From contig JBDTNV010000002.1 in the NCBI GenBank assembly GCA_039933555.1, forward strand, positions 1,520 through 65,519: a stretch of 64,000 bases of DNA, in the 5' to 3' direction. A program made the translations under genes and the position numbers. Positions within the stretch are counted from its first letter, which is position 1. Each line of letters opens with the position of its first letter. Under the pieces are notes generated by a model. The model made no database searches and was not told the origin of the DNA. It saw only the letters and a list, made by a program, of their open reading frames with translations. The DNA is from Ignavibacteria bacterium (lineage in GTDB: Bacteria; Bacteroidota; Ignavibacteria; Tepidaquicellales; OLB5). Below are positions 5,792 to 63,889 of the stretch, piece by piece.

Positions 5792-6871
5792 CTATTTCTT
5801 TTTCCTTTTTATCTGTTTTTTAGCCTTTGGTTTTACGCTTTTTGAAACTTTTGTTTTTTTCTTAGTGACATTGCTGTTTGTTTTGCTTTTCTTTACTGAT
5901 GACGGTTTAATCTTAGCAGATTTTGATATTTTCTTTTTTGTTGATTTGACCGTAGTTTTTGTTTTTGCCTTCTTAGCTTTTGCTTCATCCAGAGCTAATT
6001 TTACCATTGAACCCATTTCTGCAGGTGATTCAGCTACATAGATCCCTGCATCTTTTAATGCTTTGATCTTATCTTCTGCGGTTCCTTTTCCGCCTGCTAT
6101 GATAGCACCGGCATGCCCCATTCTTCTTCCCGGAGGCGCAGTCCTGCCGGCAATAAAGCCTACAACAGGTTTTGTTACATATTTCTTTACGTATTCAGCA
6201 CATGTTTCTTCTGCGTTTCCGCCAATTTCACCGATCATAATTATAGCATCTGTACTTTTATCTTCATTAAAAAGTCTCATTGCATCAATAAAGTTAGTCC
6301 CTATGATAGGATCACCGCCTATACCAATACAGGTTGATTGTCCTAATCCCAAAGCAGTTAACTGCGCAACAGCTTCATACGTCAAAGTACCGCTTCTGGA
6401 AATTAAACCAACTCTACCGGGTAAATGTATGAACCCAGGCATAATACCAATTTTACATTCACCGGGTGTAATTATTCCGGGGCAATTAGGTCCAATCATT
6501 CTAACATTTCTTCCCGCTTTATTGATATCTTCAAGATAATTCTTAGCAGTTATCATATCCTTAGTAGGAATACCTTCTGTAATTGTTACAATAACATCTA
6601 CACCGGAATCAGCTGCTTCAAGTATTGCATCCAGTGCAAACGCGGGAGGCACAAAAATGACCGCAGTATTTGCTCCGGCTTTTTCAACTGCCTCTTTGCA
6701 TGTATTATAGACAGGCACTTTATCATCGAACATTGTTCCGCCTTTGCCGGGTGTCACGCCAGCAACAACATTGGTACCGTATTCAATCATTTGTCTTGTA
6801 TGAAAGGAACCTTCAGAGCCGGTTATGCCCTGTACCATTAATCTTGTGTTTTTATTTACTAAAACGCTCAT
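5792..6871 (-). CDS. sucD: Succinyl-CoA synthetase alpha subunit with a ~65-aa lysine-rich C-terminal extension
   Basis: First ~295 aa are canonical SucD ([24 protein letters not shown].., ..RMGHAGAII..). The same frame continues into ..[33 protein letters not shown]...KQIKRKKK. No sucC is adjacent. Confidence 0.9.
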
Positions 6872-6918
6872 TAACCGCTGCTTTCTATATTAAAAATTAT
6901 GTTTTATTGTGGGAAATA

Positions 6919-6926
6919 CAAAAATA
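6919..6926 (-). promoter_or_regulatory. TAnnTTTG-type -7 promoter box upstream of sucD
   Basis: Minus strand CTATTTTTGTAT, 48 nt upstream of the sucD ATG. Nearly the same 12-mer as at 9641..9652 and 17456..17467. Confidence 0.4.
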
Positions 6927-6974
6927 GGGATTAAATTTTTATGAAAAAATACCAGAGAATTGCTTGAAAAACAC

Positions 6975-7001
6975 AAAAGCAGGTAAAAAAACCCTGCTTT
7001 T
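6975..7001 (-). terminator. Hairpin terminator downstream of the 7196..9448 cargo gene
   Basis: AAAAGCAGG-9 nt-CCTGCTTTT. On the minus strand it is followed by GTGTTTTT. Confidence 0.55.
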
Positions 7002-7183
7002 GCACCACAAAAATGAATCTAATAGGGAAACTTAAGAAGAATAATTCTTACTTTTAAAAATTTTTATGAGGTTACTAATGTAGATGTTCATGGCTTTATA
7101 TTTATTTTTTTGGTTTCGTTTAATTATGAAACTGAGTAATATTTTAATTGTTTATTTTAACCACCTGTCGCTGCCAGGTTTCA

Positions 7184-7202
7184 AAAATAGCTCCGCTATT
7201 TT
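7184..7202 (-). other. 8-bp hairpin that includes the stop codon of the cargo gene
   Basis: Minus strand AAAATAGC-gga-GCTATTTT. The TAG stop (7198..7196) lies in the 5' arm. The same structure occurs at 13761..13779, and a covarying one at 15628..15649. Confidence 0.5.
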
Positions 7203-9448
7203 ATCAAGATCATTTTCTTTGAATCAGAAAAACTGCCCGCCTTTATTGTATAGAAATAAACGCCGCTGGATAGAGTACCGGCATCGTATTTAACTTTATA
7301 CTCCCCGGCTTTTCGGAATTCATCAGTTATAACATCTATTTCTTTGCCAAGCAAATCAAATATTGAAATCTTAACGTTTACATCAATTGGCAAATTGAAT
7401 TTGAATTCAGTTGAAGGGTTAAACGGATTTGGATAACACTGAAAGAGTTCAAATTTTCCCGGTATAATGTTTGATACAGAACTAATTCCTGTAATGGAAT
7501 TATTTATTCTTAACCCCCAGCCTAAGAGGAGAGCTGAAGGCATAGAGCTGGAATGCTGAATGCTCAGAACCCAGTTACCCTGAGCGGCAGTATTGCCAAA
7601 ATTCCCAAAAGAATTAAATGGTCCTGCAAGGTAAGACCATGGGGGATAAAATTCGGTTAATGGTTCCTGTCCGTCTTTGAAAAAAGTAAGTATGTTCCTT
7701 CCATAACCTCCGGTTCCGTTTTCCAGTATTCTCTCCTGTCCGTTCGGAGCTTTTAATTTAACTACAATACCGCCAATATTAGGGTGCTGTAAAGAAAGAA
7801 AAACCTCTATTACAGATAGCGAAACATTGCCCGGAATGTAAATGGTATCGTATACCGTTGCGAACTGATCAATGGTTTTGTTTGGTACCCTGATAGAAAA
7901 TCCTGCCGGGAAAGGATTATCAGGATTATCACCCCTGTTTATAGTTGTGGAGTGTGCATCATAGAAATCCGTTAAAGGACCGCCTACAAATTCGGCATTA
8001 TACCCGCTGAAACGACAGCCGGACCGGCCTGAAGGATTATCTGTTTTAAATGTTGCATACAATAAGCCAACTGATAAATAATTTCTCAGATTCCCTTCAA
8101 AATCCCACGCAGCTGCAAGCGGTCCGGTTAATGTCTCTGATCTTACTGAATTAAACATATTTATTTTGATTTCTTCATTTGTCATTTCTCTCGACCATAT
8201 TCTGATCTCGTCCATCCATCCGGTAAAATATGTATTCTCATCCCATTGCCAGCTTCCAAACCTTAATTCACTGGTATTTACCGGCATAACTGTAGTTATT
8301 GTATTCTCTCCGGTAAATTGACCATTAAGATAGAATTTTACAGTATAAGTACCTGATGAATAACTCCATGCTACTGCTATATGAAACCAGTTTGATGCCG
8401 GCAAAAGTGGACCTGAAATTATGTTGTTTGGACCAATCTGAAATTTCAGAATTCCTGAGGCATCAATAAAAAGGCGGTAAGAAGTATTTCCGAGTGTATT
8501 ACCTTTTGCAAGAATTGTTATTGGAGTAGATGTACCGACAGTCGCAATCCATAATTCAATCGTTCCTCCCGATGATAAATTTAATGCGCTATTATCGGCA
8601 ACCTTTACATAGTCAATTGCCCTGCCTGGAAAATACAATGCCAGATTATATGGTATGGGCTGGCCCTGGATATTAGTATACAACTGCTGGGCTCCACCTC
8701 TCAAATAGCCGTTATAATTATTAATGTTCTCAAATACTGTTTGCCCGAAAATATTAAAGGTCCACGAAGCTTTTAACCCGTTATAAATTTGTCCGCCGGT
8801 AATTGCAGAATCAAAATTAGCAGATGCTTCTCCTCCTAATCCAACAAACCTGTTGGTGGAAATCCGGCTCACATCAGAAAGTGTATTCCATAATCTAACC
8901 TCGTCAACGTAACCGTTCAAATATGATCCGGGTGTTAATCTGCTGCCGCCAATTGTCAGTGAATCAGAATTTGCCGATAATACTGCCGGTGAAATTATAT
9001 TTGCAACCTGGTTCCCGTTCTTAAAAAGAGAAATGTGAAAGTTCGGATTAAAATTTATCCATGATGCAGCAACATGAACCCAGCTGTTAAGCTGAACAGT
9101 TGTATCGGTAACAAATGAAGTATTATTTAATTTCAGGAAAATTTTCCCTGCACCTGTAATCCCAAATTCCAACAGGGTCCCTTTCTGAAGTATATATGAA
9201 TCATTGGGATTCAAAGAATTTAAATATATCCACGCTTCAACTGTACCTGCAAGCTCCGGATTTAATGCTGCATTGGGAGGAATTGCGACATACTTTCCGG
9301 GTCCCGATAAATTTCCTAATATCCCGTTATGAGATTGAAAACCATAAACATCTGTAACATCATTATTGAAAACCTGCGAATAAGAAATATTTATCATTGT
9401 TAAACAAAAAAACAAAAACAGTTTAATTCCGTCTTTAAAAAATTCCAT
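7196..9448 (-). CDS. Secreted LamG/concanavalin-like repeat protein with a proprotein-convertase P-domain-like module and a T9SS C-terminal sorting domain
   Basis: 750 aa. Signal peptide MEFFKDGIKLFLFFCLTMINISYSQ. LamG-type motifs ..YVDEVRLWN.. and ..WMDEIRIWS.. P-domain-like ..VFLSLQHPNIGGIVVKLKAPNGQE..GNWVLSI.. CTD ..CYPNPFNPSTEFKF...KKMILIK. AGGAG lies 8 nt upstream of the ATG. Confidence 0.7.
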   Translation of the reverse strand: MEFFKDGIKLFLFFCLTMINISYSQVFNNDVTDVYGFQSHNGILGNLSGPGKYVAIPPNAALNPELAGTVEAWIYLNSLNPNDSYILQKGTLLEFGITGAGKIFLKLNNTSFVTDTTVQLNSWVHVAASWINFNPNFHISLFKNGNQVANIISPAVLSANSDSLTIGGSRLTPGSYLNGYVDEVRLWNTLSDVSRISTNRFVGLGGEASANFDSAITGGQIYNGLKASWTFNIFGQTVFENINNYNGYLRGGAQQLYTNIQGQPIPYNLALYFPGRAIDYVKVADNSALNLSSGGTIELWIATVGTSTPITILAKGNTLGNTSYRLFIDASGILKFQIGPNNIISGPLLPASNWFHIAVAWSYSSGTYTVKFYLNGQFTGENTITTVMPVNTSELRFGSWQWDENTYFTGWMDEIRIWSREMTNEEIKINMFNSVRSETLTGPLAAAWDFEGNLRNYLSVGLLYATFKTDNPSGRSGCRFSGYNAEFVGGPLTDFYDAHSTTINRGDNPDNPFPAGFSIRVPNKTIDQFATVYDTIYIPGNVSLSVIEVFLSLQHPNIGGIVVKLKAPNGQERILENGTGGYGRNILTFFKDGQEPLTEFYPPWSYLAGPFNSFGNFGNTAAQGNWVLSIQHSSSMPSALLLGWGLRINNSITGISSVSNIIPGKFELFQCYPNPFNPSTEFKFNLPIDVNVKISIFDLLGKEIDVITDEFRKAGEYKVKYDAGTLSSGVYFYTIKAGSFSDSKKMILIK

Positions 9449-9532
9449 TTATTTTTCTCCTGATTATTTTTTAGAACTTATTCATCTTTACGAGAACAAA
9501 ACTGCATCTCAGGCAGTACAAACTTTACAGAG

Positions 9533-9540
9533 CAAAAATA
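9533..9540 (-). promoter_or_regulatory. TAnnTTTG -7 box for the 7196..9448 cargo gene
   Basis: Minus strand TATTTTTG, 85 nt upstream of ATG 9448. Confidence 0.4.
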
Positions 9541-9639
9541 CATTAATTGTTCCACACTATTCAAAATGAAATTTCCGGAATGTGAATGATTCTAAATTGC
9601 ATATTACTTCCTATTATTGCGGTTTTTTTGATTTTTTTA

Positions 9640-9652
9640 GCTATTTTTGTAT
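9640..9652 (+). promoter_or_regulatory. Conserved promoter motif GCTATTTTTGTAT (contains a TAnnTTTG -7 box) for paralog A
   Basis: 13-mer identical to 17455..17467 upstream of paralog B, and preceded by a T-run in both. Confidence 0.5.
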
Positions 9653-9668
9653 ATTAATTATATGAATT

Positions 9669-11147
9669 GTGAATAAAACCGGTACACAGAACAAGCTTCA
9701 AAGTAAAGCCCTGGATATACTTGGAAGCTTAAACGCAAAAGAATTTAATCAATTCGGTAAATATCTTGATACATTCTTTGTTTCAAACAGGAACTTGAAG
9801 AAGCTCTATGGGTATCTTAAAAGATATTATCCATCGTATGAAAGCCCCAATCTTTCCAAATTGAATATTCATAAAGCAGTTTACCCAGAATCTGCACAGT
9901 ACAGTGATTCTAAAGTAAGGAAACTCTTATCTGACATGTACAAAGAAGCTGAGAGCTACATATCAATTACACATTTGAGGAAAAATAAGCTCATCAACGA
10001 TAAGATATTACTTGATGAATTCGATTCAAGGACTCTGGACAACCTGTTTTACGCGAAATATGATGAAATAAATTCATTTCTAGATTCCGAAGGCGCCCAC
10101 TCTTATCAATTCCTGGAAAAACACATTATAGAGTGGATAAATATTTCATTCCATCTTGAAAGAGGAATGCAGCATAAAATTGCATTAAATGTATATAAGA
10201 GAGCAGAGTACATTATATTCTATTTACTATCGGATATGTTTACAACTTTGCAGGATATGAATGCAAATTTGGCAAGATATAATTTGTCTCAAAAAGTGAA
10301 TTTGGCACAAGAATTTATTTCAAACCTGGATACAGAAAAATTATTCAGATATATAGAAAAGAACTTCCCGGAGAACATAATTCTGCGGATATACTATTTA
10401 TCTTTTCATGCATTCAATAACATAGACCAGGAAAAGTACTATTTTGACCTTAAGAAGCTTGTCTTCAATAATCTGAAACTTTTACATGAAAACAGCAGGC
10501 GGGCAGCCGTCACATTTCTGATAAATTATTGTGTTAGAAAAGCTGCAATGAACAGGCAGGGGTTTGAATCTGAATTAAGTGAGAATTACAATGTTTATAT
10601 AAAGAGCAAACTGTACAGGTTAAGTGGTGAAAATTATTTAAGAATTGACCTTTTCCTTCATATCCTGGGGAATTACTTCAATATGGGCAAAATCAGAGAA
10701 GCGGCAGAATTCCTGAATGAGAACATCCAGGTAATTCAGCCGATCCACCGTAAAAATATGCTTAGCTTATGCAATGCAATGATTGAGTTTGAAAAGGGAG
10801 AATTCACAAGATCATTAGTAAGCGCATCACAACTTAAATCAAACACAAAACTATATAAAGATAGTTTAAAGATTCTTATACTGAAAAATAATTTTGAACT
10901 CAAAAACTATGAAACAGCTCTAGAAAATATTGCAAATTACAGGAAATCCATGGAAAAAAGTGAAAGCATGCATGAACAGGTGAAGGAAAAAAGCATGAAT
11001 TTCCTTCTCTATCTAAACCGCCTTGTAAAGCTGGCCAATAAAGAGCCTGATAAGAAACTTGCTCTTGAGTTGAGAAATGAAGTTAGCACTAACAAAAACA
11101 TTGGCGAAAGCAAATGGCTGATAAAGAAAATAGACGAAATAACATAG
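9669..11147 (+). CDS. Uncharacterised ~490-aa all-helical cytoplasmic protein, paralog A
   Basis: 492 aa with a GTG start, no signal peptide or TM segment, and no domain I recognise. Roughly half its residues match 17505..18968 (e.g. FHLERGMQHKIALN.YKR.EY, SGENY.R.DLFL.IL.NYF, IQP.HRKNML, LILKNN.ELKN). Confidence 0.85.
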   Translation: MNKTGTQNKLQSKALDILGSLNAKEFNQFGKYLDTFFVSNRNLKKLYGYLKRYYPSYESPNLSKLNIHKAVYPESAQYSDSKVRKLLSDMYKEAESYISITHLRKNKLINDKILLDEFDSRTLDNLFYAKYDEINSFLDSEGAHSYQFLEKHIIEWINISFHLERGMQHKIALNVYKRAEYIIFYLLSDMFTTLQDMNANLARYNLSQKVNLAQEFISNLDTEKLFRYIEKNFPENIILRIYYLSFHAFNNIDQEKYYFDLKKLVFNNLKLLHENSRRAAVTFLINYCVRKAAMNRQGFESELSENYNVYIKSKLYRLSGENYLRIDLFLHILGNYFNMGKIREAAEFLNENIQVIQPIHRKNMLSLCNAMIEFEKGEFTRSLVSASQLKSNTKLYKDSLKILILKNNFELKNYETALENIANYRKSMEKSESMHEQVKEKSMNFLLYLNRLVKLANKEPDKKLALELRNEVSTNKNIGESKWLIKKIDEIT

Positions 11148-11156
11148 CAAAAAATA

Positions 11157-11945
11157 TTATTTAGTGTTTAGCCCCAGAAGATAATCGCAGCATTTCTTGA
11201 AATTACCATCTGCGTTATTCCTCTCAACGATCCAGTATTTATTATTGATCCTTGCTTCCAAGATACTGAAAGACATTTTAGATTTATCTGGTTTTTCATT
11301 TAGATAAGAAGGCATTTCAAAAAACCCTGAATCCTTTATCAAATTTCCAAGTTCCTCCCAGTTTGTATTTTCTGCTGAACCAGTAATATTTTTGATAAAT
11401 TCAAGTTTCACAGGCATATCACTCATTGACTCATATTCTGCATAAGAAATTTCTTTAGTTGTATCAAGCGAGCCATCCGGATTAATTGCCGGAACATACT
11501 TTCCATTACTCTGCGGTTTTAAGAATGCCGCCCTTGAGAGTATTCTGCATGTTAACCATATGTTATCCTTATCTTTATGAAGTGATACAATTGTACATTT
11601 ATCAAACCCGTTGAACTGCATCAGCCTGTATACATCATGTCCTTCACTAATTGAATAAATTATAGGCTCCTTAGCTTTCAGCAATGTACCTGAATATGTT
11701 GAAAGCTTCGCTGTATCTATGCTTGATGCAGAATTATCTTTATCAGTAGTTGTTACCGGGTAATAATATCTTGGCGCATCAACACTTTTGCTTTCATTTT
11801 TGGAGTTACTTTCTTTCTTATCGCTCAGTTTTTCAAGTTTTTCCTTTGCGCCGCAGGACGAGAATAGTATTACAAATGAAAACTTAACTAGAATTATTAA
11901 TGCTATAGTCGAAACTTGTGATATATATATTTTTCTCTTTGTCAT
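11157..11945 (-). CDS. Hypothetical lipoprotein
   Basis: 262 aa. Hydrophobic leader ending in the lipobox-like LFSSC, then a Ser/Lys-rich linker. No recognisable domain. Confidence 0.6.
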   Translation of the reverse strand: MTKRKIYISQVSTIALIILVKFSFVILFSSCGAKEKLEKLSDKKESNSKNESKSVDAPRYYYPVTTTDKDNSASSIDTAKLSTYSGTLLKAKEPIIYSISEGHDVYRLMQFNGFDKCTIVSLHKDKDNIWLTCRILSRAAFLKPQSNGKYVPAINPDGSLDTTKEISYAEYESMSDMPVKLEFIKNITGSAENTNWEELGNLIKDSGFFEMPSYLNEKPDKSKMSFSILEARINNKYWIVERNNADGNFKKCCDYLLGLNTK

Positions 11946-11989
11946 AATTTAGATAATTAATTTTTATGCTCATTTAAAACGAAAAATTA

Positions 11990-12388
11990 CTATTGCTTAT
12001 ACACCATTGTGACTGTACCTTTTCCTATTGTTTCATCATTACAGCCAATAACACTTAACGTATAGTCACCCCATTGAGGCATATCCATTTCAAAACAGAC
12101 CCATGTAGCAGAAGGATCTATATCTACCCAGGAAACGGGGCCCGGCTCGCCTAATTTTTCTCTTCTGAATTTAATTTGGTTGCATCCATATGCTGCGGGA
12201 AAATTAACCAGAATATAAATTACATTATCCTTATACGCATCATATTTAAACTTGGTATTTTCGCCAACAGGCACTCCATCAGTGCTCTTTGACTCGCAAA
12301 AATGGATTGTTTGACTCTTAAGGCCCGAAATAAAGATGAACATCAAGATAAATACACAGAATATTAAAACATTTTTTTTTGATTTCAT
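11990..12388 (-). CDS. Hypothetical small secreted protein
   Basis: 132 aa with signal peptide MKSKKNVLIFCVFILMFIFISGLKSQ. No recognisable domain. Confidence 0.6.
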   Translation of the reverse strand: MKSKKNVLIFCVFILMFIFISGLKSQTIHFCESKSTDGVPVGENTKFKYDAYKDNVIYILVNFPAAYGCNQIKFRREKLGEPGPVSWVDIDPSATWVCFEMDMPQWGDYTLSVIGCNDETIGKGTVTMVYKQ

Positions 12389-12413
12389 TATTTTACATTA
12401 TTTTATCTTAAAT

Positions 12414-12449
12414 AAATAAAAAGCAGGGCAGGAGAACATCGCCCTGCTT
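12414..12449 (-). terminator. Intrinsic terminator after the 12466..13689 gene
   Basis: Minus strand AAGCAGGGC-11 nt-GCCCTGCTT followed by TTTATTTATTT. Confidence 0.7.
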
Positions 12450-12465
12450 CAATTAACTACCGATG

Positions 12466-13689
12466 CTATTTGATGAGAATCATTTTCTTAACGTCTTTAT
12501 ATTCACCTGCATTGATGCTGTAAAAGTATGTTCCGCTTGCAAGATTTGATGCATCAAAATTAACAGTATACTTACCCGCTCCGAGCTCTTCATTCACCAG
12601 TGTTCTTACTTCCCTACCAAGAAGATCATATACAGAGATCTTTACATTTGAAATATCCGCAATATCAAACTTAATGGTTGTAGATGGATTAAACGGGTTT
12701 GGGTAATTATTGTACAGTTTAAAATCTGAAGGTACTTCACTGCTGTATGTGTTCACTGAAGTGGTAGCGCTATATTTAAACAGGTTTCCTGCAGTTCCAA
12801 CAACATAACCCACATTTGCCGAAGGGAAATGAACTGAAAAGAATCCCGCATTTGTTCCTGAAATATCCGAAAGCCATGAAGAGCCTCCGTTGGTTGTTTT
12901 GATTATGGTATTGGTAAAACCAACTATCCACCCGGTATTTGCATTGATGAAATGCACATCCCGGAATTCCTGAATAACACCGCTTGTGAGAGTGCTCCAG
13001 CCTGTCCCCCCGTTTACGGTTTTCCTGATAAGCCCGTTCTGCCCAACAACAAACCCGGTGTTATCATCAACAAAGTAGACGGAATTTATGAGGTTTGGCT
13101 GACTGGTTTGCGGGGCCCAGTTCACACCATAGTCAAATGAACGCCTGATGTTACCTGATTCGCCCGCTATCCAGCCGTTAGCGCCGCCTGGGAAATATAC
13201 CGAGAGCAGAGTATTAGCCGTACCGCTCCCTTGGGAAAGCCAGTTTATTCCGCCATTAACTGTCCTTCTCATGTAGCCATCTTCGCCAACAACCCATCCT
13301 GTTTGTGAATTGATGAAATGCAGTGAATACAGGATATTTGTTTGCGAGCCGGTGGATTGCAGGCTCCACGTAGCCCCTCCGTTGTTTGTGTAAACAATCC
13401 TGTTATTGGTGGCACATACCCAGCCAATATCGGGTGTTGCAAAGTAAACACAATTAAGGTCAAAATTTCCAATCAATGAACTGTTTTGTGCCACCCAGTT
13501 GAGCCCGCCGTTTGTCGTTTTGCGTAAAACATTATTAGCTCCTACAATATAACCTGTTTGCTCATTTGGAAAGTGAACTCCCCGAAGTGTAGTTGTTGTT
13601 CCGCTGACAAGCGGCGACCATGACTGCGAATATGCCGCTGCGGAAATGAAGACTGAAACTAAAAAAAACATGAAGATCTTGAAATGCAT
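12466..13689 (-). CDS. BNR/Ycf48-like beta-propeller protein with T9SS C-terminal sorting domain
   Basis: 407 aa with a signal peptide and many repeats of the type TTNGG.NW / T.NGG..W. CTD ..NYPNPFNPSTTIKF...KKMILIK. AGGAG lies 5 nt upstream of the ATG. Confidence 0.75.
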   Translation of the reverse strand: MHFKIFMFFLVSVFISAAAYSQSWSPLVSGTTTTLRGVHFPNEQTGYIVGANNVLRKTTNGGLNWVAQNSSLIGNFDLNCVYFATPDIGWVCATNNRIVYTNNGGATWSLQSTGSQTNILYSLHFINSQTGWVVGEDGYMRRTVNGGINWLSQGSGTANTLLSVYFPGGANGWIAGESGNIRRSFDYGVNWAPQTSQPNLINSVYFVDDNTGFVVGQNGLIRKTVNGGTGWSTLTSGVIQEFRDVHFINANTGWIVGFTNTIIKTTNGGSSWLSDISGTNAGFFSVHFPSANVGYVVGTAGNLFKYSATTSVNTYSSEVPSDFKLYNNYPNPFNPSTTIKFDIADISNVKISVYDLLGREVRTLVNEELGAGKYTVNFDASNLASGTYFYSINAGEYKDVKKMILIK

Positions 13690-13732
13690 TTTTGCTCCTT
13701 TTATTATATGTTTTTAAATTCCCCAAAAAATC

Positions 13733-13755
13733 ATTTTATTAACCTTAGAAACAAG
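13733..13755 (-). repeat. Conserved intergenic element (minus strand CTTGTTTCTAAGGTTAATAAAAT), copy 1
   Basis: Matches 15602..15623 at 22 of 23 positions (one extra T here). Starts exactly 17 nt after the stop codon of the upstream cargo gene in both copies. Confidence 0.6.
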
Positions 13756-13760
13756 GCTGC

Positions 13761-13779
13761 AAAATAGCTTTGCTATTTT
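13761..13779 (-). other. 8-bp hairpin that includes the stop codon of the cargo gene
   Basis: Minus strand AAAATAGC-aaa-GCTATTTT, with the TAG stop at 13775..13773 in the 5' arm. Confidence 0.5.
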
Positions 13780-15584
13780 ACGAGTATCATTTTTTTGATA
13801 TTTATAACACTTCCTGCTTCAATTTTGTAGAAATAAGTACCGCTTGCAAGAGCTGATGCATCAAATCTCACTTCATGATCACCGGCTTTTAGATTTTCAT
13901 CTACTAAGACACTAATTTCTTTACCCAGAAGATCATACACGGTAATTTTTACTTTTGATTCAGCCGGAATTGAATATTTTATTGTTGTAACCGGATTAAA
14001 TGGATTTGGATAATTTTCCATATGAAATTCGCCGGGACCGGGTTCAACATTTGCCTTAGTTTGCTGTAAACAAAAATCAGTAACACAAAGTGTTTGATTT
14101 GAAAATTCCGAATTATATAATACCATGCACCCATTTACAAATGAATTGCCGGTATAGCCTGCCCTTAATTTTCCATATGAATTCACCGGATATAGCAAGT
14201 CTGCAACAAAAGAGCTTGTTGGCTCATAAGAAGTATTATTAATATTTCCGGTATAATATATATTCAGGTCATTATAAGTTGTGTAGGCGAACTTACATTT
14301 GCCTTGTGAAAGCTTTATTGCCTGAACATCAATATATTTGCAGGAAACCTGGTTTGAGCCTTCAACGTATGTATTTGTAAAATTTGAAAAAGAAGTTCCG
14401 CCGTTTGATGAAAACAAACATTTGAAATCATAGTTATTGGAATTGGCTGTAAGTACCCTGTATGCAATTGCAATGTTTTGATTGGAAGGTCCCCCACTGG
14501 AAACAACATGCGGCTCATCAATTTTCAAGCCATCGGAATATGTTGAATTTCCCGCAGGCGATAGACCATAATTATCACTGTAAGCCGAATACAAATAACT
14601 GTAAGCGGGAATATTAAAAATGGTATAAACCCTGTCCGTACCGTTTTGCGATCTGTAAAAGCAAATATCCTGCCAAATGTAATAATTGGCCCCGTTAGGA
14701 GTTGAACCATACCAGTAGAAGCTTTGGCTATTCCGGTAAGTCAATTGGAAGATGTTATTGAGCGGGTTAAAAACCATTGCAAACCGCTGGTATACGTTCT
14801 TAATGCCATCACTTCTCAATGAATCAACTGAAACGCTAAGATATATATAGGCGCCTGCATAAACTGAGTTGTCGCTTGTTATCCTGGGATTATATACGCT
14901 TACATTTGTGTAGGCAGAACCCCAGTGACTCCAAGTGTTAAAGCTTTGCGCTCCTGTTGTAAGGTTAAAACTAAAAAAAACAGATGCAACATGGCTTCCA
15001 ATGGTATATCCTGCGGCACAAAACAGGACTGTATCGGTACCGCCGATTATTGGTTCAATATCCAGCTCACCCGTTCTAAACCGTGCGCCAAGATAGGAGT
15101 AGCCTTTCAGAACCCAGCTTACACCATTATCATATGAGGCGAATATCCTAATGATGTCATAATTTGAATCATAGAATTTAGTTGTTGCTGCAAATAGTGT
15201 GTTTGACCGGCTTGAGGTTTGAGTTGCAATAGTTTTCACGTTCGGCCCATCAAGAAAGGAATTAAACTGTGAAGTAGAATTCCCGTGAAGTATCTTATTA
15301 TCAACTGTCATATCACCCGGAATGATTGAAACATCCGGTATACCTTCATTTTTAGTTTCACCGTAAAATGATTTTAATTTATTTATGTATTTCAACTCAT
15401 CCACTGCATCATTATTCAGCCTTGCTTTGCTCAGCTCACCTGTTATATTTTGTATTTCTGCCGAGTTGAAATCCGTTTGATTCATTATACCTTTGATATT
15501 ACCCTGCTGAGAAAGTAATCCCGCAGTTAAGATAAATGAAAGAAGAAGAAAGCCTGTAATTTTTTTCATTTTAAAATTATTCAT
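13773..15584 (-). CDS. Secreted protein of unknown function with T9SS C-terminal sorting domain
   Basis: 603 aa. Signal peptide ..MKKITGFLLLSFILTAGLLSQ. CTD ..NYPNPFNPVTTIKY...IKKMILVK. Confidence 0.7.
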   Translation of the reverse strand: MNNFKMKKITGFLLLSFILTAGLLSQQGNIKGIMNQTDFNSAEIQNITGELSKARLNNDAVDELKYINKLKSFYGETKNEGIPDVSIIPGDMTVDNKILHGNSTSQFNSFLDGPNVKTIATQTSSRSNTLFAATTKFYDSNYDIIRIFASYDNGVSWVLKGYSYLGARFRTGELDIEPIIGGTDTVLFCAAGYTIGSHVASVFFSFNLTTGAQSFNTWSHWGSAYTNVSVYNPRITSDNSVYAGAYIYLSVSVDSLRSDGIKNVYQRFAMVFNPLNNIFQLTYRNSQSFYWYGSTPNGANYYIWQDICFYRSQNGTDRVYTIFNIPAYSYLYSAYSDNYGLSPAGNSTYSDGLKIDEPHVVSSGGPSNQNIAIAYRVLTANSNNYDFKCLFSSNGGTSFSNFTNTYVEGSNQVSCKYIDVQAIKLSQGKCKFAYTTYNDLNIYYTGNINNTSYEPTSSFVADLLYPVNSYGKLRAGYTGNSFVNGCMVLYNSEFSNQTLCVTDFCLQQTKANVEPGPGEFHMENYPNPFNPVTTIKYSIPAESKVKITVYDLLGKEISVLVDENLKAGDHEVRFDASALASGTYFYKIEAGSVINIKKMILVK

Positions 15585-15601
15585 TTAGTTTTTTTGAATT
15601 T

Positions 15602-15623
15602 ATTTTATAACCTTAGAAACAAG
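15602..15623 (-). repeat. Conserved intergenic element (minus strand CTTGTTTCTAAGGTTATAAAAT), copy 2
   Basis: See 13733..13755. Located 17 nt after the stop of the 15641..17290 gene. Confidence 0.6.
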
Positions 15624-15627
15624 ATTA

Positions 15628-15649
15628 CTTAAATACTTCGTTATTTAAG
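15628..15649 (-). other. 8-bp hairpin that includes the stop codon of the cargo gene (covarying version)
   Basis: Minus strand CTTAAATA-acgaag-TATTTAAG. The 5' arm is the last codons plus TA of the TAA stop. Confidence 0.45.
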
Positions 15650-17290
15650 TAAAACCATTTTCCTGATATCCGTAAAGTTCCCTGCTGTAATCTTATAGAA
15701 ATACGTACCGCTTGCCAGAGTCGAAGCATCAAAATTTATTTCATAGCTGCCTGCAGTTTTAAATTCATTTGTTAGCATTTGCACTATTCTGCCTAGTATA
15801 TTATAGATTGTTATTTTTACTATTGCAGATTGAGGAATATCGAATCTTATTCCAGTGGAAGGATTAAACGGGTTTGGATAGTTTTGATAAAGCTTATTTT
15901 TATTAGGCAGAAGATTAGAAATTGTGTTGACGGCTACAACCTGTGAATATTTAATCGTAACAATATCATAGCCGGTACCTGGCCCAATGCTCGAGCCAGT
16001 AACAAATACATCATTAAAAGCATTAAGCTTTATACCAACAACATAATCATATAAATTTGTGCCGCCATCATAATTTTTAGACCATTGCAGCACACCTGAT
16101 GTATTGTATTTTATAGTCGTGTAATCTGTTGTTCCAATAGTATCCGTCTGGGTATTACCGGTTACATATATATTTCCGGCATTATCGCAGACTATTTCGT
16201 TACCCACATCAAAACGATTTCCGGAACCATTATAAGTGTTAGCCCATTGCTGTGTGCCCGAAGAATTATATTTTAACGTAAGCATATCGTAGTTAGCGGG
16301 TGAAATAGCCGTTCTGCCTGTAATAAATACATTTCCGTAAGCGTCAACAGCAATAGATGAAGCCTCATCATAATCATTTGCGCTTCCGTTGTATCTTGCA
16401 GTCCATAATTGCGCTCCTGCTGAATTATATTTAATAGTGGCACAATCGCTGTTGCCGTTCCCCCAGCTTACACCGGTTATATATACATTCCCGGAAGTAT
16501 CCAGCACTAAAGATTTAACATCATCATTGGCATTACCGGGACCGTAATATCTTGCTAACCATTGCTCTGCACCATTGGAATTATATTTAATCGTAACATA
16601 ATCTGTATTATTAGGGTTAATCCTGTTGCTTCCTGTGATGAAAACATTAGCAAGGTTATCGACCGCAATGGATACAGCGGCATCAAAACTGTTTAACGAC
16701 CCGAATTTTCTGACCGCCCATTGCAGTACACCCGCGCTGCTGTATTTTAAGGTCATGAATCCACCCGAATTTACTGCCGCTGAGTCGCTTTTACCGGTAA
16801 CATAAACGTTTCCGCTGTTATCAACAACAATACTTCTTCCATCATCGTTAAGATTAAAACCGTTGTACTTTGAAGCCCATTGAAGCACTCCGTTAGTATT
16901 GTATTTAATTGTCAGGCAATCATAACGTGCAGTAGAGTCAGACCAGGAACTGCCGGTAGCGTAAACATTACCTGAGGCATCAAGTGTTAATGCGTTTAAG
17001 TAATCTGTACCATTGCCCGCTCCCAAATAATGCTGAACCCATAACAGAATTCCTGCAGAATTGTATTTGATAACCGTGCAATCTTCAAAACCCTGCGGAT
17101 CCTGGGAGGACCCGGCAACATATGTGTTTCCCAATGCATCAATCTTAAGCGAACTGGCGTAATCTCCGGAATTCCCTGCTCTGTTGTACCTTGCAATCCA
17201 TTCTGTATTTACCTGCGAATAAACACTTTTTACACAAAATAAAGTTATTACAATAAGGAGCGAATACTTCAATTCACGAAACAAATTCAT
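15641..17290 (-). CDS. SBBP (beta-propeller) repeat protein with T9SS C-terminal sorting domain
   Basis: The track ORF extends to 17416, but the Met at 17290 starts a proper signal peptide, MNLFRELKYSLLIVITLFCVKSVYSQ. About ten repeats of the type GN.YVTG...DY.TIKYN..G...W. CTD ..NYPNPFNPSTGIRF...IRKMVLLK. Confidence 0.75.
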   Translation of the reverse strand: MNLFRELKYSLLIVITLFCVKSVYSQVNTEWIARYNRAGNSGDYASSLKIDALGNTYVAGSSQDPQGFEDCTVIKYNSAGILLWVQHYLGAGNGTDYLNALTLDASGNVYATGSSWSDSTARYDCLTIKYNTNGVLQWASKYNGFNLNDDGRSIVVDNSGNVYVTGKSDSAAVNSGGFMTLKYSSAGVLQWAVRKFGSLNSFDAAVSIAVDNLANVFITGSNRINPNNTDYVTIKYNSNGAEQWLARYYGPGNANDDVKSLVLDTSGNVYITGVSWGNGNSDCATIKYNSAGAQLWTARYNGSANDYDEASSIAVDAYGNVFITGRTAISPANYDMLTLKYNSSGTQQWANTYNGSGNRFDVGNEIVCDNAGNIYVTGNTQTDTIGTTDYTTIKYNTSGVLQWSKNYDGGTNLYDYVVGIKLNAFNDVFVTGSSIGPGTGYDIVTIKYSQVVAVNTISNLLPNKNKLYQNYPNPFNPSTGIRFDIPQSAIVKITIYNILGRIVQMLTNEFKTAGSYEINFDASTLASGTYFYKITAGNFTDIRKMVLLK

Positions 17291-17349
17291 AGTATGACTC
17301 ATATAATATGTACAATTAATTGTCATTACATTTCTGATGTAATGTTCAT

Positions 17350-17357
17350 CAAAACTA
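17350..17357 (-). promoter_or_regulatory. TAnnTTTG -7 box for the SBBP cargo gene
   Basis: Minus strand TAGTTTTG, 60 nt upstream of ATG 17290. Confidence 0.35.
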
Positions 17358-17454
17358 CATTTAAAGTCAGTTTTTTCAAAAGGGAGTTTTATTGATTGTG
17401 AAAAATTAAATATCACCTGTTAATTACCATTTTTTCGTATTTCATTCTTTTTTT

Positions 17455-17467
17455 GCTATTTTTGTAT
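17455..17467 (+). promoter_or_regulatory. Conserved promoter motif GCTATTTTTGTAT for paralog B
   Basis: Identical 13-mer to 9640..9652, 37 nt upstream of ATG 17505. Confidence 0.5.
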
Positions 17468-17504
17468 GTAAAACCTTTCGTTATTGTGAAAATTTAAATC
17501 TCAA

Positions 17505-18968
17505 ATGATACAAAGCAAAGCTATAGATATATTAGGGTCTCTGAGCAATAAAGAATTTCAGCAATTCGGAAAATACCTGGATTCATCAGCATTTACATCT
17601 CATAAGAACCTTCCAAAACTTTATAGATTTTTGAAAAAGTATCATCCGGTATTTGATTCTGACTCTTTGACAAAAGAAAGCATTTATAGGGCTGTTTATG
17701 GCAGTTCAGCATACGATGATTCTAAAACAAGAAAGCTTTTGAGCGATATCTATAAGGAGGCGGAAAAATTTATAGTAATTTTGAATGTTTTCTCGCAAAA
17801 AGAAACTTATGATAAGATAATCCTGGAAGAGCTGGATATAAGGAAGCTTGACAGCATATTTATTTCAAAATACGATGAAGTTACAGCATATCTTGATGGC
17901 AGCGAGAAACATTATCAATATTACCTTGATAAATTCCTGGTTGAATGGAAAAACATTATGTTTCATCTTGAAAGAGGAATGCAGCATAAAATTGCACTGA
18001 ATATATATAAACGGACCGAGTACCTTATTTTTTTCTTCTTATCGGATCTCTTCTTATCGCTGAATGATATTGATTCCAACCGCCACGCATATAACATAAT
18101 AAATAAAGTAAACCTCGCAGAATTCTTTATTTCAAACTTAAATGATAAAAAGCTATTAGAATATATCAGACAAAATAAGTTCGAAAACACAGATCTTGTA
18201 TATACATATTATCTTGGTTACCTGGCATTGAAGAATTTTAATGACGAACAAAGCTATTATAACCTGAAAGAATTTGTTCTGAAAAATATTGATTCCTTTC
18301 ACGAAGGCTCTCAAAAGACCTCAGTCATTTTTCTGATCAGTTATTGCACCCGAAAACTAAGACTTCAAAGAACAAGGAAGTTTGAGCTTGAGCTTAACGA
18401 ATGGTATAATCTGTATATAAAATACAAGCTTCATAAAATAAGCGGTGAAAATTATATCAGGAGTGATCTATTCCTTAATATCCTGGCAAATTATTTTGAT
18501 GTAGGGAGAATTTCTGAAGCCGGCAAATTCCTGGAGGATAACATTGAAAGCATTCAGCCAAGCCACAGGAAAAATATGCTTGCAATTGCCAATGCGCTGA
18601 TACAATTTGAAAAAAGAAATTTTGGGGAGTCTTTAAAGCATTCTTCACTTATAAAGTCAAATACATTCCTTTATAAGGATAAAGTGAAACTGCTTATTCT
18701 CAAGAATAATTATGAACTGAAAAATTTCGAGATAGCCAAAGAGCTATCCCATAATTACCGCAATTTCCTCCAGGAAAATAAGAATATTACAGATCTTCAA
18801 AAAGAAAGAGGAACGAAATTCCTGCATTATTATAACATTTTATGGAGAATATTCGATGGTAAGGGTGATAAGATCAGCTTAACGAAACTGAAAGAGGAGA
18901 TAGCGGCTAACAGCAGGTTTAACGAATCTGTTTGGATTCAGGATAAGGTAAATGAATTTACAAAATAA
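17505..18968 (+). CDS. Uncharacterised ~490-aa all-helical cytoplasmic protein, paralog B
   Basis: 487 aa, colinear with 9669..11147 over its full length. Shares a perfect 33-nt stretch with it (17964..17996 = 10152..10184). Confidence 0.85.
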   Translation: MIQSKAIDILGSLSNKEFQQFGKYLDSSAFTSHKNLPKLYRFLKKYHPVFDSDSLTKESIYRAVYGSSAYDDSKTRKLLSDIYKEAEKFIVILNVFSQKETYDKIILEELDIRKLDSIFISKYDEVTAYLDGSEKHYQYYLDKFLVEWKNIMFHLERGMQHKIALNIYKRTEYLIFFFLSDLFLSLNDIDSNRHAYNIINKVNLAEFFISNLNDKKLLEYIRQNKFENTDLVYTYYLGYLALKNFNDEQSYYNLKEFVLKNIDSFHEGSQKTSVIFLISYCTRKLRLQRTRKFELELNEWYNLYIKYKLHKISGENYIRSDLFLNILANYFDVGRISEAGKFLEDNIESIQPSHRKNMLAIANALIQFEKRNFGESLKHSSLIKSNTFLYKDKVKLLILKNNYELKNFEIAKELSHNYRNFLQENKNITDLQKERGTKFLHYYNILWRIFDGKGDKISLTKLKEEIAANSRFNESVWIQDKVNEFTK

Positions 18969-18985
18969 TAGAGTTTTGATTAAAT

Positions 18986-19016
18986 AAAAAACCCCGCAGT
19001 TTCCGGGGTTTTTTAT
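18986..19016. terminator. Bidirectional intrinsic terminator between convergent genes
   Basis: AAAAAACCCCG-cagtttc-CGGGGTTTTTT. Confidence 0.8.
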
Positions 19017-19034
19017 TCTCTAAGATTGTTTTTT

Positions 19035-19745
19035 TTACTCTTCTTTAACAGAGTTACCTACTATTACCCATTCGCCATTCTTATTTGCAGAAAGGTTATA
19101 AGTTACAGTCAGAGTTTTTGTTACCTCGGTATCTTTACCGTCTTTTTTTACTACCTGCGTTTGCTTGACCTTTGACACAACAGTTGCTTTATCATCCTTC
19201 TGGCTCAATACCTTAGGTTCCTCAACAATTGTGAAATTCTTTGTATTCTTATAGCCTGATTTCATTTTATCGACCGGGCGTGAAGGAAAGTACTTATGCG
19301 CCTTCTTCATGTTGCTGTCAAAATTTCCAGATTCGTTTATTCCGCGCTGAATATATTCATAGTAATCTTTAACAGTCGAAGTTGGGTTTTCAAACTTTTT
19401 GGTTATTTCCTTCTGAATCTCTTTTTTCTTTTCTTTCTTTTTTTCAGCTTCAACTTTCTTTACGGAATCTTTCTGCACCTGTGTTATTGTATGAGTATTA
19501 GTTGTCCCGGTATCAGTTGGTGTTGTCTGCTGCATTGAATTATTTTCAACCATACCAAGCTTCTTCTCGCGTTCTTCAAGTTCAATTTCTTTCAGCTTAA
19601 CCCGTGCTTCGCGGTCATTCAGCTCTTTTTCCTTGTCAGCTAATATCTGGAAACTCGTCTTATTTTGCTCTTCGCGCTCTTTGGTACATCCCGTAATGAA
19701 AACTAATATTGCAAGGATTGCTATATATTTAATGTAGTTACTCAT
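19035..19745 (-). CDS. Hypothetical lipoprotein with coiled-coil and Lys/Glu-rich region
   Basis: 236 aa. Leader ..ILAILVFITGC (lipobox), then charged low-complexity sequence ..EAEKKKEKKKEIQKE.. Confidence 0.6.
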   Translation of the reverse strand: MSNYIKYIAILAILVFITGCTKEREEQNKTSFQILADKEKELNDREARVKLKEIELEEREKKLGMVENNSMQQTTPTDTGTTNTHTITQVQKDSVKKVEAEKKKEKKKEIQKEITKKFENPTSTVKDYYEYIQRGINESGNFDSNMKKAHKYFPSRPVDKMKSGYKNTKNFTIVEEPKVLSQKDDKATVVSKVKQTQVVKKDGKDTEVTKTLTVTYNLSANKNGEWVIVGNSVKEE

Positions 19746-63600: not shown

Positions 63601-63889
63601 CCGTGAAGAATATAAAAGTAAATTCATAAAGAGTTCTGAAAAGTTACTTGGGCTATTCCTGGCGCAAAACCGGTTTGATGAGATCTTGGAATATTCCCGG
63701 AAGCTGAATCAAGCTGATAAACTGAATATTCCTTCTATCAAGTCAGTGGTAAAAGCATACATAGAGACAGGTAAGGGAAACCTTGCCCGTAGAAATCTTG
63801 AGAAATTTATTGCCCAATATGAAGATGAAATAGGTGAAAAACTGCCAAAAACTATACTAAATGATTTAGAAGGACTATTTGAAAAATAG
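60611..63889 (+). CDS. Large STAND-type regulator: MalT-like P-loop NTPase + TPR-like helical repeats + C-terminal winged-helix/BTAD (SARP-type) DNA-binding module
   Basis: 1092 aa. N-terminal ..IARSGIVKLL..LLLVTAPAGYGKTTLV..VIDDLHEL.. A long helical repeat region. C-terminal ..LKMLAFGGLKFFLKGEEIP..KWVRKKRKLFLCYLI.. (OmpR/SARP wHTH) and ..LYSGDVLEGYYEGWCESIREEYKSKF.. (BTAD). Confidence 0.75.
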   Translation: MTQNRVRQVIQTRITAPKAPQNIIARSGIVKLLTASEGKKLLLVTAPAGYGKTTLVNELINSSGKTTAWIHVTPDIKNVFNLLTYIISSLNRINEQFGGVIFETISLVENDSEKINDMGSALGELAGLMVNELLVNFTGEVMIVIDDLHELQSEKYVMQFLDLLISDLPDNIQLVIISRELPGINLTHLRAKRLISEVTQKELVFTKDEIKSLALKIYSKPLTEKEFTYLQTSVGGWITGIHLVMQSIEENTEDQLSTIPPNLFDYFAGEIFIKLNSQTQDFLLKTSHLENFDSDICNVILDSDSSAEVLGYLLGKNIFLESKQYISSDGKVVINYDYVQLFRTFLLTKSKELLTEYMRKDILYRTSVYYQTNSHHEKAIDYAVLSGNREYSEELLTQNFDEFFLKGNFEKLWEWVNAFEENSPENLKHFFYYKGVLCKYFLGQLDKATEYLDMAIEISGNQKDEDFRMTALTMKLEIMLNQGNTSGALEILTGLENIRSSDINKAKIFYFLGNIYFQNNDLARSLEYSNKALELCENAGNITIIEDIYNLLGNINIIKGEFVQSTHYYELLLSMTRSLQKKLLAQGNLAILYSRSGKFGKARECYEETLKLFRFFSSPVFEIVVKMTEYTLSFESGDFTAALAIAAEINKLSLKLKNSQYICLSFRFLGECSYYLNKFESAVKYHELAGSYLNISSENDSLLNLLFKAISKINSAPPEETEKELTKAYAYFTSIESSYDRSIAGFYLAKFYYINNNPETCSQYLEIVFKLSKEKGYFSFLLREYISSEEIFKLLPSEYKASYKEFLAASSEIAELSWISENYKEFLKSFIESKYDLKMLAFGGLKFFLKGEEIPEKKWVRKKRKLFLCYLIHSHNQTISKDKIVDVFFGDTPVESVDNIFHQAVSNIRTALRNNIGVEHKGKVKPAEPDYIIYEDKTLRFNRIYSFYSDLDEFDNLIRNSGSAESAVLTIEYLKKACELYSGDVLEGYYEGWCESIREEYKSKFIKSSEKLLGLFLAQNRFDEILEYSRKLNQADKLNIPSIKSVVKAYIETGKGNLARRNLEKFIAQYEDEIGEKLPKTILNDLEGLFEK

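Follow-up and report, generated by a model that had tools for sequence, protein, structure and literature searches.

Helical-repeat proteins encoded back to back with type IX secretion cargo genes in Ignavibacteriota and Bacteroidota

Two paralogous genes for all-helical proteins are found in a 64,000-nt stretch of an Ignavibacteria bacterium genome (contig JBDTNV010000002.1, positions 1,520 to 65,519; the whole stretch is referred to as the window), each transcribed divergently from a gene for a secreted type IX secretion system (T9SS) cargo protein. As a genomic association, it is well supported that the family comprising both proteins is a dedicated, previously undescribed partner of cargo genes. 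With regard to its role, we tentatively favor a locus-specific regulator of the divergent cargo promoter. The two modules, A and B, each consist of a family gene and a cargo gene encoding a characteristic C-terminal domain (CTD):

9669..11147, plus strand: helical-repeat protein A, 492 aa, GTG start (open reading frame (ORF) map)
17505..18968, plus strand: helical-repeat protein B, 487 aa, paralog of A
7196..9448, minus strand: cargo A, with a signal peptide, two Laminin_G_3 domains, a P_proprotein domain, and a type A CTD (Pfam, TIGR04183, and the protein termini)
15641..17290, minus strand: cargo B, an SBBP beta-propeller with a signal peptide and a type A CTD, first gene of a co-directional array running from 17290 to 11157

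An N-terminal signal peptide combined with a C-terminal Por_Secre_tail/TIGR04183 domain identifies the cargo genes of the window as type A T9SS cargo. This CTD is encoded by four minus-strand genes (7196..9448, 12466..13689, 13773..15584, and 15641..17290). An earlier note on this DNA, made from the sequence alone, had described each helical gene as divergent from a CTD cargo gene, and Pfam and TIGR04183 confirm both CTDs. The organism has a T9SS, since the window encodes a homolog of the PorU sortase (1..2604, minus strand), which is truncated and contains Peptidase_C25 and a propeptide (NCBIfam T9SS_sortase, 414 bits for the partial protein). This gene is located 4.6 kb from module A and also flanks the locus in the relatives L001, L003, and L006.

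A profile scan of genome contigs with the closer alignment yielded only 16 loci. All 22 non-tandem family genes in the Ignavibacteria loci are divergent from a gene for a secreted protein, and three more are arranged in tandem behind another family gene. Thirteen of the 22 partners have a type A CTD, eight have other architectures, and one is cut by a contig end; every examined partner has a signal peptide. The architectures without this CTD include LamG, FG-GAP, and a 1193-aa protein with a common dockerin-like tail, as well as a CARDB protein. According to precomputed Pfam annotation of their neighbors, more distant family members show the same divergent pairing, with one exception, a family gene that is fourth in a cluster which is itself divergent from an SprB/PKD CTD gene. 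Three Bacteroidota contigs carry three different cargos (NHL, cohesin-like, and cadherin/Big_9), and their remaining flanks consist of unrelated housekeeping genes.

A metagenome scan added 80 loci. Upstream data were available for 71 of the 85 family genes then known from the Bacteroidota branch, and in 59 of these the neighbor could be assessed for a CTD. The upstream neighbor is a divergent CTD gene in 48 of these 59 cases (81%), compared with 25 of 192 genes (13%) at a distance of at least two positions within those loci and 4 of 81 neighbors on the downstream side (odds ratio 29, p = 1.5e-22, shared ancestry being ignored). CTD genes are generally common in the flanks at this distance (25/192 and 15/104 genes, 13-14%). 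The Bacteroidota partners form at least 14 unrelated passenger clusters, whereas the family genes represent 18-31 lineages, and the intergenic region has a median length of 221 nt. Passengers observed across loci comprise LamG, SBBP, NHL, cadherin/Big_9, FG-GAP, DUF7619, CARDB, and others, in cargos of 345-1573 aa. Since passengers and other flanks are unrelated, the secreted nature of the partner and the shared intergenic region are the only constants, and inheritance alone is insufficient to explain the pairing, given this diversity of cargo and context. Adjacency to a CTD gene, which the earlier note had proposed to check elsewhere, is the rule throughout the family in both phyla. The suggestion made there, that the helical proteins are dedicated regulators or cytoplasmic partners of cargo expression or export, therefore stands with respect to the association with cargo genes (22/22 and 48/59); its regulatory part is a tentative possibility, no DNA-binding domain having been found.

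Partners with dockerin-like tails, the exceptions to the CTD rule, occur in loci L017-L020. The tail (..IDNDAxNFxxGYLPTDLTGD....DNNAxNFVxxVxP followed by the stop codon) is present in some Ignavibacteria partners lacking a recognized CTD (L017:322-2760; L018:1465-5046 and 7117-9555; L019:5011-7527 and 10137-13964) and may serve as a different C-terminal tag for sorting or anchoring. In L018, two separate ORFs (9858-10040 and 10151-11341; a frameshift or a pseudogene) make up the second family gene, whose ortholog in L020 is intact. In some Ignavibacteria, two divergent family paralogs arranged in tandem behind a single cargo promoter (L005:8001-10943, L026:5446-8364, and L016:3633-6665) hint at proteins that may work as pairs or hetero-oligomers.

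The divergent intergenic regions of the window are 220 nt (9449..9668) and 214 nt (17291..17504) long, as previously noted, the second value applying if cargo B starts at ATG 17290. The longest ORF of cargo B reaches 17416, which makes it 126 nt too long and places it over conserved promoter blocks. The sequence supports a start at 17290, because the longer ORF would overlie a conserved promoter block and because a signal peptide follows 17290. The -33/-7 consensus of Bacteroidetes promoters is well established, and the promoter positions listed below were predicted from it:

9533..9540, minus strand: predicted -7 box of cargo A, TATTTTTG (TAnnTTTG), read from the sequence; the CAAAnnTAC block is kept in 16 loci
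9562..9565, minus strand: -33 TTTG of cargo A, 21 nt upstream of the -7 box
9578..9589 (core 9581..9586), plus strand: box 1 of module A, ggaaTGTGAAtg, about 20 nt upstream of the -33 element of the cargo gene
9640..9652, plus strand: predicted -7 box of helical gene A, GCTATTTTTGTAT, containing TATTTTTG; a T-rich block with TnTTTTT is kept in 16 loci
9665..9674, plus strand: box 2 of module A, aATTGTGAAt, with the GTG start of gene A (9669) inside
17350..17357, minus strand: predicted -7 box of cargo B, TAGTTTTG, with a -33 TTTG at 17377..17380 (minus strand), 19 nt upstream
17394..17405 (core 17397..17402), plus strand: box 1 of module B, gATTGTGAAAAa
17455..17467, plus strand: predicted -7 box of helical gene B, GCTATTTTTGTAT
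17482..17493 (core 17485..17490), plus strand: box 2 of module B, tATTGTGAAAAt, 20 nt upstream of ATG 17505

Direct reading places the minus-strand TAnnTTTG boxes and the shared plus-strand 13-mer exactly where they had been reported. The 13-mer GCTATTTTTGTAT is present as described, but it is an ordinary promoter sequence, a predicted -7 box of the Bacteroidetes type. The most informative feature, absent from the earlier note, is the pair of ATTGTGAA boxes. Same-strand pairs at 9581/9668 and 17397/17485 (87 and 88 nt apart, respectively) are the only such pairs in the window, whereas the pair count in 500 shuffles averaged 0.04 and never reached 2. The repeat of module B extends to 21 nt (ATTGTGAAAAATTAAATATCA vs. 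ATTGTGAAAATTTAAATCTCA, p = 0.003).

Alignment of 16 close loci revealed conserved blocks within otherwise unalignable sequence, in the order CAAAnnTAC (cargo -7, minus strand), TTCAAAAGG (cargo -33 TTTG), TGTGAA (box 1), the T-rich TnTTTTT (family -7), and ATTGTGAA (box 2). The two module promoters are similar because these blocks are conserved over 16 related loci. The distance from box 2 to the start codon varies between 0 and 37 nt and is usually about 20 nt. The two ATTGTGAA boxes on the family-gene strand are separated by 87-89 nt in 13 of the 16 loci and by 96-98 nt in the other three; the pair is kept across the family clades A, B, and C despite approximately 50% identity and different cargo. 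In 40 non-redundant intergenic regions of Bacteroidota, an unbiased k-mer screen returned ATTGTGAA as the top 8-mer (8 vs. 0/298 control strands), together with a second box, TTTATCG (13 vs. 6), and the -7 consensus TATTTTTG. Both ATTGTGAA and TTTATCG boxes are located almost solely on the family-gene strand in Bacteroidota, often twice and 66-110 nt apart. The box type varies between family clades, and the TTATCG/TTATCC box was found with at least 8 cargo clusters.

Several other readings of these regions were considered and set aside. ATTGTGAA is rare in other intergenic DNA, which does not suit a general promoter or global-regulon motif, and inspection showed that its spacing to the start codon and the absence of a conserved -10 partner do not fit the -35 element of an extracytoplasmic function (ECF) sigma factor. 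Direct repeats in distant loci, considered as proof of co-evolving operators, were significant only in a few loci (window B, L009, and L028) and are anecdotal. In the Bacteroidota locus L028 (5814-6000), an 18-nt direct repeat of its own (TTCGATTTGTCTGAAAAA / TTCAATTTGTCTGGAAAA; 76 nt apart, p = 0.007) may represent a third box type. A hairpin, ACTGCCTGAGATGCAGT, with a U-rich run is located at 9501..9517 (minus strand) in the predicted 5' untranslated region (UTR) of cargo A, and a similar palindrome occurs in L008b. A structured RNA or riboswitch was rejected for the intergenic regions and 5' UTRs, as RNA folds, including the cargo A hairpin region, were no better than those of shuffled sequences, and the Rfam search gave only a sub-threshold SAM-III match inside gene 11157..11945 (11274..11355, minus strand; 23 bits vs. 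a gathering score of 45), most likely due to chance. No conserved small ORF was found in the intergenic regions or downstream; a hydrophobic 23-aa ORF in region A (9586..9657), considered as an RRNPP-like pro-peptide, has no counterpart in region B.

The two helical proteins share 51% identity and 72% positives over 486 aa (BLASTP, E = 2e-167), in agreement with the by-eye estimate of about one-half. Their assignment to a known family was attempted with Pfam, NCBIfam, PADLOC, PDB sequence and profile searches, and Foldseek, and was rejected, as only generic tetratricopeptide repeat (TPR) signals were obtained; the earlier note had likewise recognized no domain in either paralog. Pfam yielded no match above threshold for either protein, the sole signal being ARM_TT21/TPR-like (16-20 bits vs. 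a cut-off of 27). NCBIfam produced no match, nor did a single-protein sequence search of PDB, and the anti-phage defense models of PADLOC matched none of four diverse family members. Pfam and NCBIfam identify neither paralog as a curated T9SS component (Por/Gld/Spr), yet they recognize PorU and the cargo CTDs. With no signal peptide or transmembrane segment evident in the sequences or the model, both paralogs appear to be cytoplasmic.

The all-helical character read from the sequence was reproduced by a confident AlphaFold2 model built with a 38-sequence alignment (all-alpha, 24 helices, pLDDT 89, pTM 0.79), which consists of an N-terminal helical domain of approximately 120 aa followed by a TPR-like solenoid. 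Structure prediction assigned no specific known family. Foldseek searches of PDB with the full model returned only generic TPR, PPR, and ARM solenoids (probability up to 1.0, best E-value 1.5e-3), and RapI, NprR, RapH, and phage phi3T Rap were retrieved at target-normalized TM-scores of 0.40-0.47 (TMq at most 0.38). A family profile of 132 sequences matched consensus TPR proteins in PDB at E = 1.5e-6, over positions 324-382 only. On the basis of the model and the profile match, the paralogs show the features of the TPR/alpha-solenoid superfamily, namely helical repeats, a superhelix, and a detectable TPR signature.

An exhaustive HMMER search identified 3607 clusters (50% identity) at E ≤1e-3 and 1308 at E ≤1e-10. 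Nearly all family members are approximately 470-505 aa long and align end to end, and the 132-sequence alignment contains no conserved stretch of 7-10 residues. All members with an organism name, roughly 35 members or loci on which the two-phylum range rests, belong to Ignavibacteria/Ignavibacteriota or Bacteroidota (Saprospiraceae, Chitinophagales, Bacteroidia metagenome-assembled genomes (MAGs), and Flavilitoribacter nigricans), and every one is annotated as a hypothetical protein. As to the refuting condition raised earlier, that homologs be common in genomes lacking T9SS, the named homologs speak in favor of the note's reading, both phyla having T9SS. With a median pI of 8.8, family members are mildly basic, the 50 N-terminal residues having a net charge of about +3.7, and the consensus N-terminus is L.TFS..E.K.F..F..SP(F/Y)FN. 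Residues conserved family-wide include E404, W477, and K481 (B numbering), while the Bacteroidota profile contains a conserved NYC motif, N312, N344, and W462 in the solenoid part.

The arrangement follows the pattern of a local regulator, because its constants over two phyla are a non-exported helical protein of approximately 480 aa, divergent orientation, a boxed region of approximately 200 nt, and a large secreted partner. We therefore consider it possible, although far from assured, that the family protein regulates the cargo promoter of its own locus. The helical protein would act at the shared bidirectional promoter of approximately 200 nt through the two same-strand boxes (ATTGTGAA in this lineage), with the neighboring cargo gene as its target and, in module B, also the cargo array behind it. 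The box located about 20 nt upstream of the -33 element of the cargo gene would suit activation, the other box, which follows the predicted -7 box of the helical gene itself by about 20 nt, would suit autoregulation, and the TPR solenoid could serve as the signal receiver for a peptide or protein ligand. Binding of the boxes by the family protein, the promoter positions, activation and autorepression, and ligand sensing are what we infer from this layout.

In architecture and neighborhood logic, the closest analogs are the RRNPP receptor-regulators and divergently encoded local regulators. RRNPP proteins of Firmicutes (Rap, NprR, PlcR, and PrgX) are likewise cytoplasmic, with approximately 350-480 aa, a small N-terminal helical domain, and a TPR solenoid; their genes adjoin one with an exported product, and the best partial fold matches of our family include RapI, RapH, NprR, and phi3T Rap (TMt 0.40-0.47). 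Unlike them, the family has no detected helix-turn-helix (HTH) domain or Rap three-helix bundle at its N-terminus and no sequence similarity to them, it is found in Ignavibacteriota and Bacteroidota, and its neighbor encodes a large T9SS cargo with a structural passenger instead of a small pro-peptide. Regulators of the LysR and AraC types are also encoded back to back with their target over approximately 200 nt and have repeated sites, one near their own promoter, but the family has an all-helical solenoid fold and no HTH or known DNA-binding domain. On these tested features, with neither an HTH nor an adjacent pro-peptide gene found, the family does not qualify for either the RRNPP or the divergent-regulator class.

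Several observations weigh against a regulatory role. The divergent arrangement and the repeated, putatively operator-like sites in the common intergenic region are those of a local regulator, but a recognizable DNA-binding domain is missing. The N-terminal 125 aa modeled alone (pLDDT 87) had no PDB fold match with E <1, and among ten diverse N-termini no HTH, winged HTH, or other DNA-binding family recurred at E-values up to 10. The fold similarity to Rap and NprR is that of generic TPR proteins (best E-value 1.5e-3, TMq ≤0.38). The box density calculated with a position matrix (9.2 per kb upstream of family genes vs. 0.27 per kb across 33 kb of intergenic sequence elsewhere, a difference of about 30-fold) is partly circular, as the matrix was trained on the same sites, and its informative part is the low background. 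The Bacteroidota loci with ATTGTGAA represent one family clade with orthologous cargos, so the conservation could reflect promoter inertia; the box position relative to the predicted -7 boxes varies between lineages, and within-locus direct repeats are mostly not significant on their own. The boxes could also be bound by some other factor. Because no DNA-binding domain is recognizable, both a post-translational partner and a third-party factor have to be considered.

A post-translational partner is a less probable role than local regulation. The helical protein would then be a TPR-type factor of the cytoplasm, acting in chaperoning, targeting, or quality control, that binds newly made cargo before Sec export, at its signal peptide, CTD, or an unfolded segment, and the bidirectional promoter would serve only for co-expression. 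TPR-like solenoids typically bind peptides or proteins, the solenoid part has Asn, Lys, Arg, Tyr, and Trp at conserved positions, the searches gave no DNA-binding domain, and the tight one-to-one pairing with a common promoter is compatible with co-expression. The partner passengers, however, are unrelated (at least 14 clusters), and some partners have dockerin-like tails without a recognized CTD; no common epitope is evident beyond the signal peptide. CTD genes are also frequent at a distance from family genes, one such gene in the window being 51798..53621, and the oriented boxes beside the family gene and their clade-wise change are not explained by this role.

Two known arrangements may be compared with it. 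Class II chaperones of type III secretion (SycD, LcrH, and IpgC) are cytoplasmic TPR proteins encoded beside the gene of a secreted substrate. They differ from the family in having approximately 160 aa and three TPRs and in serving one-step secretion from the cytoplasm, whereas T9SS cargo crosses the inner membrane by Sec and the family has neither a sequence match nor a specific fold match to them. Dedicated partner genes adjoining single T9SS cargo genes are represented by PorP/SprF-like proteins, as described in one report (PMC9143113). Those proteins, however, are located in the outer membrane and anchor cargo with a type B CTD; the family is soluble, helical, devoid of a signal peptide, and encoded divergently from type A CTD cargo.

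Similarly doubtful is a third-party factor, that is, another transcription factor bound to the boxes through which both genes are driven, with a cytoplasmic role of the helical protein that does not concern the neighboring cargo, for example as a signaling scaffold or an envelope-stress adaptor. It would account for the presence of ATTGTGAA in both phyla, at loci whose family clades are not the nearest relatives of one another, for the palindromic box contexts in L029 (TTCACATTGTGAA and GTGAAAAGATTCAC), and for the lack of a detectable DNA-binding domain in the family. The TGTGA core presumably resembles CRP/FNR-type half-sites. The boxes, however, are almost absent elsewhere (0.27 per kb; 0/298 control strands), which would reduce the regulon of such a factor essentially to these modules, and the persistence of the pairing through repeated changes of cargo and context is hard to explain without a functional tie.

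There is some chance, albeit limited, that the family represents an unrecognized class of cargo-coupled cytoplasmic factors in bacteria with a T9SS, namely helical-repeat proteins that read specific DNA or RNA boxes without a classical DNA-binding domain and sense the fate of the neighboring secreted protein. Such proteins would form a feedback circuit for each selected cargo locus, e.g., via a peptide from the cargo or the cleaved CTD.

A complete lack of functional link, with the pairing due to CTD-gene abundance and inherited synteny and the promoter similarity due to a duplication remnant, is highly improbable: CTD genes do make up 13-14% of the genes in the sampled flanks and many sampled loci are orthologous, but the upstream frequency of 81% vs. 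a background of 13%, the fixed divergent orientation, the recurrence with at least 14 unrelated cargo families, in 18-31 family lineages of two phyla with otherwise unrelated neighbors, and the persistence of the boxes and their 87-89-nt spacing at 43% third-position identity between A and B effectively exclude chance synteny.

The remaining genes between the two modules and the tract shared by the paralogs are as follows:

12466..13689, minus strand: CTD cargo with a BNR/Ycf48-like propeller (Pfam/NCBIfam)
13773..15584, minus strand: CTD cargo with a passenger of unknown type (Pfam/NCBIfam)
11157..11945 and 11990..12388, minus strand: small exported proteins of 262 and 132 aa, respectively, encoded by the last two genes of the array that begins with cargo B
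10152..10184 = 17964..17996, plus strand: 33-nt identical tract encoding HLERGMQHKIA, exact and in frame

The ORF map thus agrees with the earlier description of two more CTD genes and two small exported proteins between the modules. These genes had been described there as a cargo island bracketed by the modules; the modules do not bracket it in a functional sense, and its genes are part of the array that follows cargo B in the same direction and converges on gene A. The two small exported proteins have no family match in Pfam or NCBIfam; orthologs of 263/133, 278/133, and 269/131 aa go with the array without exception in L007, L014, and L011. Orthologous partners of cargo A are found in L001, L006, L008-L011, L013, and L014.

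The site between sucD and the genes for a 236-aa protein and an amidase (6871..19035 in the window; also L001, L007, L008, L011, L014, and L015) holds one to three modules, together with an array of CTD genes whose number varies from 2 to 7 or more. Close relatives with a single module at the same site have sucD, a LamG-CTD gene back to back with a family gene, the 236-aa gene, the amidase gene, YajQ, and an EVE-domain gene, while other MAGs have one to three modules in varied order. In the phylogenetic tree, family proteins form three clades, A, B, and C; protein A of the window groups with L008b and L013, and protein B groups with L007 (84% identical), L011a, and L015. Orthologs in other MAGs are 72-84% identical, whereas the clades are only about 50% identical to each other. 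Judged from these sequences, the clades are older than the species splits, and the duplication is ancient. The earlier term "duplicated module" is accordingly correct as to paralogy but not if taken to mean a recent duplication. Since the clades predate the species splits and the number and order of modules vary, the site is rearrangement-prone in addition to the duplication being ancient, and it appears to be a rearrangement hotspot.

Genes A and B have 59% overall nucleotide identity, and their third codon positions are identical in 43% of cases overall and in 54% at codons of identical residues. The 33-nt tract is their only exact shared word of 14 nt or longer; in A and B orthologs merely 24-29 of the 33 positions match. 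Eleven consecutive fully identical codons, inside the only 14-residue identical run, have a probability of roughly 0.01, our own estimate based on the 54% third-position identity at identical residues and not a program output. Protein A of the window has the B-type GMQH where its clade-A orthologs have GTQQ or GLQQ, and the flanking codons are still A-type. The exact identity had earlier been attributed to gene conversion or strong constraint; given the ortholog residues, the simplest reading is that the tract is probably a short gene-conversion patch from B to A. In clade-A genes (window A and L008b), the canonical ATGATACAAAG start is lost, and 9 residues read from the former 5' UTR now extend the N-terminus. 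Elsewhere in the window, an unrelated large regulator, a 1092-aa STAND-type protein with an AAA/NACHT-like ATPase, TPR, and a C-terminal BTAD domain, is encoded at 60611..63889 (plus strand), and a single reverse-strand ATTGTGAA overlaps the start of this gene, probably by chance.

A full-text literature search returned no description of a cargo-adjacent cytoplasmic helical protein, and no T9SS component model matches the family, consistent with the earlier statement that no such component had been described. Two reports on the PorX/PorY/SigP system of Porphyromonas gingivalis (with PorA) describe T9SS-linked regulation with possible feedback from a CTD protein (PMC7712824, PMC12152298). The family resembles that system as a regulatory layer linked to T9SS; it differs in lacking the domains of a two-component system and ECF sigma factor acting globally on machinery genes and in its local pairing, with one gene per cargo locus. 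To our knowledge, known T9SS regulation (PorXY-SigP) concerns the machinery and not individual cargos, of which T9SS organisms encode tens to hundreds with a CTD. The family described here, which neither Pfam nor NCBIfam contains, adds thousands of clusters and is tied gene by gene to individual cargo loci in two phyla, with promoter boxes of its own. If its members are post-translational partners, they would be the first cytoplasmic, cargo-specific T9SS factor described. If they are local regulators, they would offer a handle on the switching-on of surface adhesin-like cargos and would contain a new nucleic-acid-recognition or signal-receiver module, and the family gene together with its boxes would be a genomic marker for regulated cargo loci in uncultured Ignavibacteria and Saprospiraceae/Chitinophagales.

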